A stretch of 64,000 nt of DNA from a virus (Duplodnaviria > Heunggongvirae > Uroviricota > Caudoviricetes), in the IMG/VR virus record IMGVR_UViG_2537561979_000003; one strand, written 5' to 3'. Below, piece by piece: positions 14,909 through 19,194 of the stretch. Under the pieces are notes generated by a model, which saw only the letters and a list, made by a program, of their open reading frames with translations, was not told the origin of the DNA and made no database searches. How positions within the stretch are numbered: position 1 is the stretch's first letter; every line of letters starts with the position of its first letter. The position numbers and the translations under genes are program-made.

Positions 14909-16171
14909 TCAGCGAACGTAAATAGTGCCGCCGTTCTCTTTTTCCCATGCATCGCTACGTGCATAGCAAACATCGAGAAGTCTTCTTGCCGCTGTTTCCT
15001 CTAAACCCAATTCGACAACCAACTGCTCATGACGGCGGGTAACCACATCAAACAGGGTATGCAGCCCTTTAGCTGCCAGATCATCAATAAATTCCGGTTC
15101 GAACGGCAGCTCTGCATCTGCCAACATAACCTCTTGCGCCCACTCGACACGGCGGACCAGTTCCGGGCGGCGGCTTTCCATCTCTTTACAGATCAATTCA
15201 TGGAAGAACTCTACCCAACCTTCCGGCTGGAACTCGCGGAAAATGGCCAGCGGCTGGAAGTTTGGCATCAACCATTCGTTGATTCGGATATCAATGGCAT
15301 AGCCCATGTCGCAGCAGAACTGATAAGCAAAGTCCAGCTTAGAAACGATATAAGGACGCTCGTTATTGAACTCTTTAGGCGATGAGATCCCATAAGCCAG
15401 GAGGCGCGGGAAGAAGGAGATTTGCCCTAACGTCGGATGAAGTTTGCTTGCAGGGAAACGGCGCTCAGTAATGCCATACATTTCCTTCTTGAGCGTCGCA
15501 AATTTGGCATTCTCATTAACCAGCGCGGTAACCTCTGCTTTTTTATTAGCAAATGCCACGCGCGCCTCGCTTGCATCTTTAATAGTTTTTTTGAGCTGTT
15601 GGTTAAGGTCGGCGACCTGCTTACGCAGTTCCTGTCGCTCGCTTTTAGCTTTGTTATAGCGTTTCTCAAGGTTAAAAGGATCAAGTTTCATGATCTCTTT
15701 ATATTGAGATTTTAGCGTTGAAATCTGTGAGTTCCGCAGTTCAACCATCGCGGTCATTTCATTGAGTTTTGTTTCCAGCTCAATGCTTATACGTTCGGCA
15801 TTATCAGCACGCTGGTTGGCGTCATGCGTCGCATCGTCGATCGCGTCCTGTTGCTGGCGTTTCAAATGTTCAATTTCCAGCTGAAGCTCTTCAATTTCTT
15901 TACCCTTCAGACCGAGATCCAACTGCATATTTTCAGCTGCATCTACCAGGGAGTTATGGCTATCAGCTTCTGCGTTATAAACATCAATAAGCTGTGCGTG
16001 AAGCATCTCCGCTGACTGAACCGCATTATCAAAAAAACGTGCTGTGAGGTCATCACAACTAACGCGGCGTTGCGCGGCCCGGATGTTCTGGATAATGGCC
16101 GGGATACCGGCATTCAGGACATCAGGGATACATACATTTTCGATTGATTGGTTTTGTGCTGAAGTGCTCAT
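14909..16171 (-). CDS. Hypothetical protein, 420 aa, long coiled-coil plus C-terminal globular domain
   Basis: Long ORF; heptad-rich middle region. Confidence 0.55.
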   Translation of the reverse strand: MSTSAQNQSIENVCIPDVLNAGIPAIIQNIRAAQRRVSCDDLTARFFDNAVQSAEMLHAQLIDVYNAEADSHNSLVDAAENMQLDLGLKGKEIEELQLEIEHLKRQQQDAIDDATHDANQRADNAERISIELETKLNEMTAMVELRNSQISTLKSQYKEIMKLDPFNLEKRYNKAKSERQELRKQVADLNQQLKKTIKDASEARVAFANKKAEVTALVNENAKFATLKKEMYGITERRFPASKLHPTLGQISFFPRLLAYGISSPKEFNNERPYIVSKLDFAYQFCCDMGYAIDIRINEWLMPNFQPLAIFREFQPEGWVEFFHELICKEMESRRPELVRRVEWAQEVMLADAELPFEPEFIDDLAAKGLHTLFDVVTRRHEQLVVELGLEETAARRLLDVCYARSDAWEKENGGTIYVR

Positions 16172-16472: not shown

Positions 16473-17174
16473 TTATTCTGATTCTCGCTCAAAAAATGAG
16501 CTGATAAGGGGAAGCCAATCCTCTGACACTTCGCGAGGTCGCGGTTTGCCGTGGAAAAAGATTATTCGGCAGTCTTTTGGTAATGCCCCATTCCCCCTGG
16601 AGTAACGCGCGCTCGCATATTTTGAACCAGGTTCCACAACATCGGCCTTGTAACTTACAAACCATCCTGGATACAGATCCTGAAATGCTGGTGTATCATC
16701 GCCCATAACCTTTCGTAAGAACCCCTGGTCACCCCAGCACTCAGTAGTGACACAACGAGAAATCCAACCTTCCGGATCTTGCCAGAATGAACTCCAGATA
16801 TGCGCTTTAACACTATTTGGTATCCACAGGGCACCGCTGCCACGATATTGTGGATGGTAAAAATCCCTAAGCATGGTGAAGCTGGTTGGTGGATGCTCTA
16901 GGATTGGGCGTATATCACCGGCAATAACCGTGTCCAAATCCAGATAGAACAGATCATCGGTTATATCCGGTCGGAACAACTCGATTTTCGCCCACCAGCC
17001 ACGGCACTTTTGCCACTGGTTGATCAATGGGATAACTTTGACGCCAGGTACATGTAAACACTTCAGGTCTGTCAGGCAAATAATTTCATAGTCTTTTGGC
17101 AGTTGATTAACCAGCCACTGCACATCGGAAGCGTTATAGTCACCACCAGAGCGAAAAACTAAAGCAATCTTCAT
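16473..17174 (-). CDS. Putative nucleotide-sugar (GT-A-like) glycosyltransferase, 233 aa
   Basis: DLD (DxD-like) motif in YLDLDTV; tentative fold assignment. Confidence 0.4.
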
Positions 17175-17863
17175 GCTGCACCATCACCTTTCACTTTCAT
17201 CAATGTCAGGTTTCCGCAAAATACGGCACCAGTGTCGATATACTGCTGATTCCAGAATGTCTTCGGGCTTTTCACCGGAGTGTGACCAAAGATAAAACGA
17301 TCTGCGCCCGAAATTTCGCCACCAATATCATCCATCGAATCACTGATACGCTCGCGCGCCCAGACAACGTTGAAAAGCGGCACCTCCTTACCGAATTGGT
17401 ATTCATTATCCGGATAGTCGGCATGGGCTATAACGATAGTTTCTTGCCCCGTGTTCAACTCAATGATATAGGGCAGACGCTTTACCAGCTCCACCAGCGC
17501 CCAGGCTAATATTTCCTGATCAGTGTCCAGCATGAAGAACCATTGTCCGCCATTCATTAGCCAGTTATTCACGTTGCCATCTGGACTTAACGCATCAATC
17601 ATCAGCCGCTCATGGTTCCCCATCACTGCCCTGAACCAGGGCATCTGCAATAGTTCCAGACATTCGACATTTTCAGTACCGCGATCGATAAGGTCGCCGA
17701 CCGATATCAGTAAATCCTGCGCCGGGTCAAAATCCACACGATGGAGTTCGGACATCAGTCTGGTGTAGCAACCATGCAGATCACCAACAACCCAGACATT
17801 CCTGTATTTGGTACCGTCGATACGGTGATAAATTGTGGGTGCCATCATGTATTCTTCAGCCAT
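17171..17863 (-). CDS. ppp: Ser/Thr protein phosphatase (calcineurin-like metallophosphatase)
   Basis: GDLHG, GDLIDRG and GNHE motifs in order. Confidence 0.85.
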
Positions 17864-18471
17864 TCTTTAAGAGTCATCTGCGGAATACCTCCCATTTTCC
17901 CGCATGAAACAACGTCAATCTGTTCACGCGCAGACTGGAATAACAAAGGCAGGTGACTTAGATTTTTTGGCGTGCCGCCGGAGTGAACGCGTAGTTCTTG
18001 CGTAGCGTCAACGCCCACCAGAGCTACATGTTTGAATCCGATATGGAAAGCCAGGTTCAGAGCACCATATGCACTATTGCCGCTGGCAATTTCATTCTCA
18101 TCTTCGCAAAGGCCGAAATGTGCGGACCAGCGCCACGCCCACCACTCGGGAGAATTCGTATTTTTTGGCTCCATGCCGCGTTCAGCCACACGACGGAAGC
18201 ACAGAACGCCATCTCTGACTTCACGTTCTTTAACATCGGGTAGTGCCATGCAATAACAAACACCACGGCGACGGCGGCCACGACCAACGCGCCGCATATT
18301 GTCTGGGGATGGATCAAGGGTGAAAAAATAAGAAGCGCGGTTAAGCCAGTCGATGGCCCCATTGACCGCTATAATCGGCACTCCGCGCGGCGCAACAAAG
18401 TTTGCGGCGCTTGGGCCACTGCCGACGATAATAACGCGATCACTGCCTCTAAATTTATTCTTGGGAAACAT
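17845..18471 (-). CDS. GSGPS-motif protein (DUF115/sialyltransferase-like N-terminus?), 208 aa
   Basis: [18 protein letters not shown] near N-terminus; paralog of next gene. Confidence 0.45.
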
Positions 18472-18998
18472 TGAATTGCACTGCTCCTACTTGCATTCAA
18501 AATATGTAAATCTGCGTGTTTTTTGCGGGTATCCAGGAACTGCTGTTGCCATTTTGAAATAGACACCTGCGTTGGATTCCGTAGTGCTTGAGGGTGCGCG
18601 CCATGCCAATGAAGGCCGTTTTGCAGAGAACAGTCATAGCCGACTAATACCACTACTTCAGCCCCTGATTCAGCAGCCAGACTGATAGCCTGCGCGCCGC
18701 TATTTACCCCTTCCGCCGGTCCACAATATCGCCTGTACTCCAACGAAAATGATTTCGCCGCCGCCAGGTTGGCTGTCACTTTGCGGAATCTCCCTCCCGG
18801 TATGGTGGATCCGTATTGCTTCCACCATGACAAATCACCGGCGTATAAGGCATAAATGTCATCGAACATCTGCCAGGAATTGTTAACCGCGATGATTGAA
18901 CAGCCAGTTTTTTCTATAGCAGCACAGTCCTCACGAGTGAGTGACGGACCGCTACCGACACAAAAAACAGTCCTAGTCGCCCTGGGTGGTATGTTCAT
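18369..18998 (-). CDS. GSGPS-motif protein paralog (start refined to MNIPPRAT)
   Basis: TVFCVGSGPSL..IIAVNNS; 3' end overlaps next gene by 103 nt. Confidence 0.45.
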   Translation of the reverse strand: MNIPPRATRTVFCVGSGPSLTREDCAAIEKTGCSIIAVNNSWQMFDDIYALYAGDLSWWKQYGSTIPGGRFRKVTANLAAAKSFSLEYRRYCGPAEGVNSGAQAISLAAESGAEVVVLVGYDCSLQNGLHWHGAHPQALRNPTQVSISKWQQQFLDTRKKHADLHILNASRSSAIQCFPRINLEAVIALLSSAVAQAPQTLLRRAECRL

Positions 18999-19128
18999 TC
19001 TCAGCTGCAAATTCAGCCTCCAGGCGAGCATTCATTTCAGCGATTACAGGGTCCACTACAGCATCTGTTTCCTGTTCATTACGCGGCATGACCGATGCCA
19101 GCGACTCATAATTAACCTTGGTTGACAC
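18973..19128 (-). CDS. Small acidic protein (about 51 aa, GTG start)
   Basis: GGAG RBS then GTG; overlaps start of downstream gene. Confidence 0.3.
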   Translation of the reverse strand: MSTKVNYESLASVMPRNEQETDAVVDPVIAEMNARLEAEFAAENEHTTQGD

Positions 19129-19194
19129 GATTATTCTCCCGATGTTAAAGTGCACTACCACAAAGAGCGTACATGCACTAATTAATTTATTATT

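Follow-up and report, generated by a model that had tools for sequence, protein, structure and literature searches.

A predicted glycosylation cassette around the pmgO, pmgP and pmgQ genes of phage P1-like elements

Two overlapping genes long known in phage P1 and functionally unstudied, pmgO (hdmB in phage P7; 18369..19031, minus strand) and pmgP (hdmC in P7; 17845..18471, minus strand), are carried by a 64,000-nucleotide (nt) stretch of viral DNA (IMG/VR record IMGVR_UViG_2537561979_000003), referred to below as the window. Between positions 16000 and 20000, identity is 99.5% to phage P1 and 99.8% to the P1-like phage-plasmid JL22, which marks the window as phage P1-like. Together with pmgQ (hdmD in P7; 16473..17174, minus strand) and, in P1, dbn (24966..25964, minus strand), the two genes probably constitute a conserved, mobile glycosylation cassette of tailed phages and prophages of diderm bacteria, one that would modify a protein acceptor with cytidine monophosphate-activated 3-deoxy-D-manno-oct-2-ulosonic acid (CMP-Kdo) as the putative donor. 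As far as the searched literature goes, the PmgO-PmgP-PmgQ(-Dbn) cassette, its WaaZ/Maf-type enzymology and its link to adhesin islands appear to be new; no work on the function of pmgO or pmgP, on the cassette or on DUF115 in phages was found there, the text matches to 'DUF115' being to DUF1156.

In the pathway envisaged, soluble enzymes would be produced in the lytic cycle; in P1, their expression would start at the C1-controlled pmgN promoter, probably joined by read-through from the late promoter LPpmgL. They would act in the cytoplasm, sequentially or as an O-P complex, on nucleotide sugars of the host, namely CMP-Kdo for PmgO and PmgP and uridine diphosphate (UDP)-glucose or UDP-galactose for PmgQ and Dbn. 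What they would assemble is a short glycan attached to a protein, which in phages would most likely be one of the virion surface, and the function would be dispensable for plaque formation in the laboratory.

Fold and family of PmgO and PmgP

The confident AlphaFold models of PmgO and PmgP have the same three top structure matches, namely the Maf flagellin glycosyltransferase (5mu5; 12.8 and 14.0 for the two models), archaeal HPPK/MptE (8sd5; 11.9 and 11.8) and the sialyltransferase Cst-I (2p56; 10.7 and 10.9), in agreement with the DUF115/GT42 sialyltransferase-like fold proposed in a first-pass annotation of the window. The next matches are SteA, eukaryotic sialyltransferases and thiamin pyrophosphokinases, and a structure search of BFVD returned only uncharacterised MptE-like phage proteins. 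Judged from these models, the solved members of PF01973, Maf (5mu5) and MptE (8sd5), share their three-dimensional fold with both PmgO and PmgP. At the level of profiles, PF01973 is matched at E ≤ 0.01 by 33 of 35 family members, the best at 5.1e-8, and a natural O-P fusion, P0171, passes the PF01973 threshold with 44.6 bits.

Neither the PmgO nor the PmgP profile, used alone, had a meaningful match among PDB sequences. With a merged O+P profile, the best PDB sequence matches are to Cst-II and are weak (E 0.027): the profile stretch vvivasGPSLtaeD aligns to Cst-II residues 4-24, and NSGagAieLAahlGakrviLvGyD aligns to residues 129-156. Both the N-terminal GxGPS and the central (S/T)SG...G-x-D motifs of PmgO and PmgP, invariant or nearly so in the two families, thus align to Cst-I/Cst-II (CAZy GT42) in a sequence relation that is marginal; in Cst-II, we take the GxGPS loop and the (S/T)SG...G-x-D motif to contact CMP. 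The catalytic general base of Cst-II is presumably His188, next to phosphate-binding tyrosines, and conserved histidines, which may or may not be equivalent to His188, follow the G-x-D motif in PmgO (H141, H143 and H146) and in PmgP (H173).

A further relative is the lipopolysaccharide inner-core Kdo-III transferase WaaZ of E. coli K-12 and Salmonella (TIGR04437/NF007333/PF27901), which, like PmgP, belongs to the PF01973 superfamily, the E. coli protein itself matching PF01973 at E 6.9e-7. The PmgP family aligns with the WaaZ family profile over its full length (190 columns, 80.8%, E 1.3e-5) and PmgO more weakly (84 columns, 41.5%, E 2.7e-4), while the O-P fusion P0171 has a faint WaaZ_KDO_III match of 20.3 bits, against an equivalog cut-off of 200. 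Neither PmgO nor PmgP of P1 matches any NCBIfam model. WaaZ is about 80 residues longer than PmgO or PmgP and sits in the waa cluster. These alignments fit PmgP being a remote full-length homologue of WaaZ rather than a member of the WaaZ family.

PmgO and PmgP had also been described as a paralogous pair with a shared N-terminal GSGPS...IIAVN signature. The signature is real: in a pairwise BLASTP, it is the only part that aligns, including TVFCVGSGPSLTRED..IIAVNNS, with an E value (0.004) that is weak alone, and the alignment of the two family profiles (20 sequences each; hhalign) extends it to 162 columns, with a probability of 97.9%, E 3.9e-13 and 23% identity. The PHROG families of the two proteins likewise match each other. 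The kinship therefore stands, but only as ancient homology, since the profiles align though each protein has an orthologous family of its own, and members of both families still occur next to each other in distantly related bacterial phyla; by these comparisons, PmgO and PmgP are ancient homologues, not recent duplicates. Taken with the fold, they look, as predicted from sequence and models, like single-domain enzymes of the PF01973 (MptE-like/DUF115) superfamily that diverged from each other long ago.

The PmgP family is large: a search of 1.84 billion proteins gave 756 representatives at the 50% identity level (E ≤ 1e-3), and the median length is 215 amino acids (aa) in 148 family representatives. 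In two longer proteins, P0287 (423 aa) and P0302 (395 aa), a PmgP-like domain is followed by a C-terminal one, some 200 residues long, which has a G-rich N-terminal stretch of its own and a ...G(V/M)P(M/L)D motif. This C-terminal domain has no match to the PmgO, PmgP or PmgQ profiles and could represent a more distant, third branch of the PmgO/PmgP fold.

The cassette and its companion genes

Loci were collected by tblastn against annotated phages, a species-dereplicated genome scan and per-protein contig look-ups, together with hidden Markov model surveys; an initial scan of viral contigs had yielded 80 near-identical copies of P1 and no diversity. In nearly all surveyed loci, from genomes, metagenomes and phage records, pmgO-, pmgP- and pmgQ-like genes co-occur, in the orders O-P-Q, P-Q-O or O-Q-P. 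All three are present in loci of Enterobacterales, in P1-like plasmids, Citrobacter rodentium phage phiNP and E. coli phage EP_H11, as well as in prophages or contigs of Pseudomonas, Alloalcanivorax, a Gilvimarinus-like organism, Zhongshania, Commensalibacter, Brevundimonas and Sinomicrobium (Bacteroidota); the Methylophilaceae and Longimicrobiales loci have P and Q only. Every named host of the cassette is a diderm. Natural fusions join the products in several ways, including O-P (P0171, a real open reading frame (ORF) on a phage contig), P-Q (P0179 and P0248), Q-P (P0260) and Q-P-methyltransferase (P0228). Some versions carry accessory genes for an extra GT-A-like protein, an S-adenosylmethionine-dependent methyltransferase or a Sulfotransfer_2 protein. 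Variable accessory genes of this sort are typical of glycan clusters, and the Sulfotransfer_2 family is named for carbohydrate sulfotransferases. A role in defence or anti-defence was considered and rejected, as PADLOC returned no matches.

The third core gene, pmgQ, had been noted as a GT-A-like neighbour, and its profile makes this more precise. Its 233-aa product is predicted to be a GT8-like (glycogenin-like) retaining GT-A glycosyltransferase, in line with the label 'glycosyltransferase' of phrog_1962. The PmgQ profile (A5) matches glycogenin-1 (E 4.9e-6), Skp1 alpha-galactosyltransferase (2.2e-5) and also a bacterial GT8 enzyme; its DxD, GDQ and H..G..KPW motifs align to glycogenin-1, and residues D79, D81, G148, D149, H208, P211 and P213 are invariant. 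Against PF01501, the E value is only 0.31, which falls short of formal Pfam membership.

The GT-B-like gene pointed out farther along the window proves to be P1 dbn, which lies in the ban operon and encodes a 332-aa GT-B/GT4-like protein. Its match to Glycos_transf_1 (E 1.5e-5, 25.1 bits) lies just below the gathering score of 26.4 bits and covers the C-terminal residues 229-315 only, and its PDB profile matches to MshA are weak (E about 0.5). Dbn is 48% identical (E 4e-107) to the product of an EP_H11 gene located between the pmgP-like and pmgQ-like genes, and the cassettes of Buttiauxella and Serratia (L102 and L003) have Dbn-like genes close by. The homologue inside the EP_H11 cassette provides independent support for a single pathway, and in P1, the GT4-like dbn, encoded apart, appears from synteny in other phages to belong with the cassette. 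No such case can be made for ppp (17171..17863, minus strand), a lambda-PP-like Ser/Thr phosphatase gene (Metallophos, 9e-16) between pmgP and pmgQ. It occupies this place only in P1-like elements, and phage D6 has ppp without pmgO, pmgP or pmgQ, so that ppp was rejected as a part of the pathway, moves independently and is probably not a core part of the cassette. In D6, a P1 relative, ppp (L113, 3490..4182) is kept at 89.6% DNA identity among lambdoid nin-like small genes.

The matches to MptE, thiamin pyrophosphokinases and SteA raise the question of whether PmgO and PmgP are instead ATP-dependent pyrophosphokinases or SteA-like nucleotide-binding regulators that act on a small molecule. This is improbable in view of their obligate linkage and physical fusions to a GT8-like glycosyltransferase and of the accessory GT4-like, extra GT-A-like, methyltransferase and Sulfotransfer_2 genes. 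Moreover, their best structure match is Maf, their best PDB sequence matches are to Cst-II and the closest profile relative tested is WaaZ.

Donor and acceptor

To our knowledge, E. coli K-12 makes no CMP-sialic acid (CMP-Neu5Ac), and the database label 'alpha-2,3-sialyltransferase' is for this reason very probably wrong on the sugar; we know of no CMP-ulosonic acid in this strain other than CMP-Kdo. Among the four characterised relatives, Maf, Cst and WaaZ use CMP-activated 2-keto-3-deoxy sugars, whereas MptE uses ATP. The sugars are pseudaminic or legionaminic acid for Maf (Kdo in E. coli), sialic acid for Cst-I/II and Kdo for WaaZ, whose donor, CMP-Kdo, is available in every cassette host. 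Maf (5mu5) is built of three domains and about 600 residues, with an N-terminal Rossmann-like, a central Maf_flag10 and a C-terminal helical domain (PMC11339370). PmgO (220 aa) and PmgP (208 aa), by comparison, correspond to the central domain only, form a heterologous pair, are linked to a GT8-like protein and come with no flagellin. The Maf of C. botulinum O-glycosylates flagellin with CMP-Kdo in E. coli (PMC11339370; bioRxiv 10.1101/2020.06.03.131540). This precedent, the K-12 repertoire of CMP-sugars and the diderm nature of all named hosts make CMP-Kdo a plausible donor for PmgO and PmgP.

The surroundings of the cassette bear on the acceptor. In three HK97-type prophages, it either follows the major capsid gene immediately or is set among genes for connectors and head completion. 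Its place in phiNP and four other loci (L106, L110, L114 and L116) is in the late transcript, with the Q antiterminator or lysis genes on one side and the terminase on the other; in all, a position after the capsid gene or in a late operon is found in at least eight prophage lineages. The P1 cassette is flanked by tail and baseplate genes and by pmgR/pmgS. Chromosomal copies have a different setting. In five Pseudescherichia-like species (L112/L092-L096, metagenome-assembled genomes included), the O/P/Q trio is part of a conserved island devoid of phage genes, where it is interspersed with genes for a 1166-aa inverse autotransporter (IAT_beta plus Big_1 repeats) and for three further Big_1/Invasin_D3 proteins. 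The proteins encoded among the trio there include Ser/Thr-rich ones of 330, 690, 790 and 494 aa. In Serratia, a pmgO-like gene shares an operon with genes for two Big_1 proteins. These adhesin islands, together with the capsid-adjacent and late positions, favour a protein acceptor, and in phages a virion protein. The Serratia plymuthica chromosome (L003, 800..14600) combines pmgO-, pmgQ-, pmgP- and dbn-like genes with those for a holin, a phage-type lysozyme, a lipase, a lipoxygenase and the two Big_1 proteins; no virion genes are present in this island, which may be a holin/endolysin-dependent secretion locus with glycosylation enzymes of its own. Big_1-like proteins were also sought in the phage loci as a common acceptor, and none was found.

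Both settings have counterparts among known systems. Aah/AIDA-I, TibC/TibA and HMW1C/HMW1 are pairs in which a cytoplasmic glycosyltransferase is encoded beside the large surface adhesin that it modifies, a layout resembled by the chromosomal islands in which O/P/Q genes and those for Big_1 inverse autotransporters are intermingled. Aah, TibC and HMW1C, however, belong to other enzyme families (heptosyltransferases and GT41), and for the O/P/Q islands such a pairing is a prediction from gene order. Mycobacteriophages, which encode glycosyltransferases and whose capsids are naturally glycosylated (PMC11256854; Freeman et al. 2023, cited in PMC12691614), offer the nearest parallel to the P1 proposal in both function and gene arrangement. 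Their hosts are Actinobacteria and their virion glycosylation has been demonstrated, whereas that of the P1 cassette is proposed from its genes.

The same enzyme families also suggest a lipopolysaccharide (LPS) target, and this is a serious rival to a protein acceptor. PmgO and PmgP, as WaaZ-like enzymes, would add extra inner-core Kdo and PmgQ and Dbn would add hexoses, remodelling the LPS core of the host, so that the receptor of infected cells would be altered or masked, with superinfection exclusion or the sparing of progeny from adsorption to debris as the outcome. PmgP is, by profile, probably a remote full-length homologue of WaaZ, all named hosts are diderms and the receptor of P1 is the LPS core; moreover, GT8 and GT4 are the families to which we assign WaaO/WaaJ and WaaG/WaaB, respectively, of the E. 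coli core. According to its title, an earlier study found that overexpression of waaZ truncates the outer core (Frirdich et al. 2003, cited in PMC4690856). The timing and the company of the genes nonetheless make LPS remodelling rather unlikely. In most prophages, the cassette is in a late operon or head module, too late to replace the LPS already in the outer membrane, and in P1 it is repressed by C1 and hence is not a lysogenic-conversion function. The chromosomal copies lie among adhesin genes, not in waa clusters. Furthermore, the PmgQ profile matches glycogenin and Skp1 galactosyltransferase, both protein-directed GT8 enzymes, and no LPS-core GT8 enzyme is among its PDB matches.

Phage DNA is the remaining acceptor to be considered. 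T-even phages glycosylate their DNA, and the EP_H11 cassette lies near a DNA ligase gene; post-replicative glycosylation of phage DNA against restriction is nevertheless highly improbable. No genes of a hydroxymethyl-pyrimidine pathway occur near the cassette in P1, lambdoid or HK97-like prophages, none of Maf, Cst-I/II, WaaZ and MptE, the characterised members compared, is known to act on DNA, and the chromosomal copies accompany adhesin genes. In addition, antirestriction activity is unchanged in P1 knock-outs (PMC9024508). The first-pass annotation had left DNA, virion and host surface open as targets of a glycosylation pathway. Of these, virion or other proteins are the best fit, given the late operons; DNA is the least supported, and the LPS of lysogens is unlikely in view of the C1 operator.

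Several observations weigh against a protein glycosylation cassette. The P1 proteins score below the PF01973 gathering score of 34.6 bits (PmgP 20.9 bits, E 3.4e-4; PmgO 23.4 bits, E 5.7e-5), and the EP_H11 cassette stands among early-looking or DNA-metabolism genes. WaaZ, GT8 and GT4 are exactly the families that build the LPS core, and the links to adhesins and capsids are guilt by association only. In the literature searched, biochemical evidence for any family member was not found, and a glycosylated P1 virion protein has not been reported.

The pmgO/pmgP overlap

The pmgO and pmgP reading frames overlap by 103 nt (18369..18471, minus strand), pmgP being read in the −1 frame with respect to pmgO; this stretch codes both for PmgO residues 187-220 and for PmgP residues 1-34. 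The out-of-frame overlap of the two adjacent ORFs, pointed out from the window at the outset, is confirmed by the ORF list and by the GenBank record of P1, which carries both genes with the identical overlap. It is not due to a misplaced pmgP start, because the conserved GSGPS motif of PmgP (residues 17-21) falls within it and a Shine-Dalgarno-like AGGAG (18486..18490, minus strand), as read from the sequence, lies within pmgO 12 nt upstream of the pmgP ATG (18471). The PmgO product has 220 aa from the first ATG at 19031 or 209 aa from an alternative start at 18998; residues 1-16 are not conserved and have a low predicted local distance difference test (pLDDT) score, neither of which discriminates between the two starts. 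The conserved core of PmgO spans approximately residues 20-204, the tail (205-220) is not conserved and the first 11 residues of PmgP are variable. As a result, the unconstrained end of each frame covers the constrained part of the other.

The overlap had been called unusual. It is indeed longer than is usual, but it is not unique, as a survey of adjacent O-then-P pairs reveals a graded series of junctions. Overlaps measure 109 nt in L114, 103 nt in P1, 94 nt in both phiNP and a C. sedlakii prophage, 49 nt in a Pantoea P1-like element, 40 nt in Chimaeribacter, 37 nt in EP_H11, 13 nt in both Zhongshania and the Gilvimarinus-like locus, 11 nt in Pseudomonas, about 10 nt in Brevundimonas and 7 nt or none in Commensalibacter; L109 has a 56-nt gap and L110 an in-frame fusion. 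By this comparison, the overlap is a variable translational-coupling junction that is long in enterobacterial lineages, and not a special device of P1. The unconserved tail of PmgO would simply read out of frame over the conserved N-terminus of PmgP until a chance stop codon is reached.

Both genes are labelled 'putative morphogenetic' in P1 and the pair 'head morphogenesis' in P7, and if these annotations were correct, PmgO and PmgP would be head-assembly proteins. This is very hard to reconcile with their enzymatic fold and with experiments on P1. The genes pmgO, pmgP, ppp and pmgQ are non-essential (PMC10695390), as concluded from plaque formation after CRISPR interference and in knock-outs (PMC10695390, PMC9024508), and PmgO, PmgP and PmgQ go unmentioned in the main text and tables of the P1 virion-proteome paper (PMC9024508). 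Dispensability and the lack of mention in the virion proteome fit accessory enzymes rather than morphogenetic proteins. In a side variant of the head-assembly reading, the overlap would yield an O-P fusion by −1 frameshifting. An AAATTTA heptamer (18451..18457, minus strand) does lie within the overlap and fits the X XXY YYZ pattern when read in the pmgO frame; ribosomes slipping by −1 at this point would make PmgO residues 1-193 continued by PmgP from residue 6, a product resembling the natural in-frame O-P fusion P0171. The heptamer, however, was not found in phiNP or the other long-overlap relatives examined, and the RNA downstream of it folds no better than shuffled sequence (z = 0.24); programmed frameshifting was therefore rejected. 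Another long same-strand overlap in the P1 annotation is that of pmgT and pmgU, at 196 nt (L001, 207..402).

Operon structure and annotation

In P1, the operon order is pmgN-pmgO-pmgP-ppp-pmgQ. The first gene, pmgN (18973..19128, minus strand), is a 51-aa ORF to which the P1 annotation was transferred by coordinates; it would overlap pmgO by 59 nt (18973..19031) if pmgO starts at 19031. According to the P1 GenBank record, the operon is preceded by the C1 repressor operator Oppp (formerly Op83; 19172..19188, plus strand), whose sequence CATGCACTAATTAATTT is present in the window upstream of pmgN, and by a predicted sigma-70 promoter, with LPpmgL farther upstream. The position of Oppp ahead of pmgN implies that the operon is repressed in the lysogen.

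The naming of the two families goes back to a typing error. The GenBank note on P1 pmgM (19195..19773) reads 'putative norphogenetic function', and 'norphogenetic protein' is now the NCBI/RefSeq product name of PmgP and PmgO family members in many genomes (clusters P0001, P0005, P0122 and others). The pmgM product itself resembles a VRR-NUC/Holliday-junction-resolvase-like nuclease and not a morphogenetic protein. Gene calls are affected as well. In phiNP (L086, 5492..6094), the public annotation has no pmgO-like coding sequence and its pmgP-like coding sequence is 30 codons short; in EP_H11 (L087, 6001..6603), the pmgP-like coding sequence is not annotated; and in L114 (8486..9109), the pmgO-like ORF was missed by the gene caller. 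One of two overlapping genes is thus often lost by annotators or callers, and the cassette is under-counted in databases.

Implications

An unrecognised glycosylation pathway appears to be encoded by four genes of the widely used phage P1 (pmgO, pmgP, pmgQ and dbn) and to be concealed by the labels 'putative morphogenetic function', 'norphogenetic protein' and the probably wrong 'alpha-2,3-sialyltransferase'. Should CMP-Kdo be the donor, the pathway would represent natural protein O-Kdo glycosylation, so far seen only with heterologous Maf, and would offer a compact glyco-engineering toolkit for E. coli, with enzymes of about 200 residues. If virion proteins are glycosylated, phage glycosylation would extend from mycobacteriophages to the phages of Gram-negative bacteria, with a bearing on antibody recognition, clearance in phage therapy, adsorption and host range. 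In its boldest form, which we consider quite unlikely as a whole, the proposal would be that P1 and hundreds of other Gram-negative phages place a short Kdo-containing O-glycan, made from CMP-Kdo and UDP-hexose of the host, on their own virion proteins via a portable PmgO-PmgP-PmgQ(-Dbn) module and that the chromosomal copies do likewise on giant Big_1 adhesins. Were this true, protein-Kdo glycosylation would have its first natural system, and virion glycosylation its first among phages that infect Gram-negative hosts.

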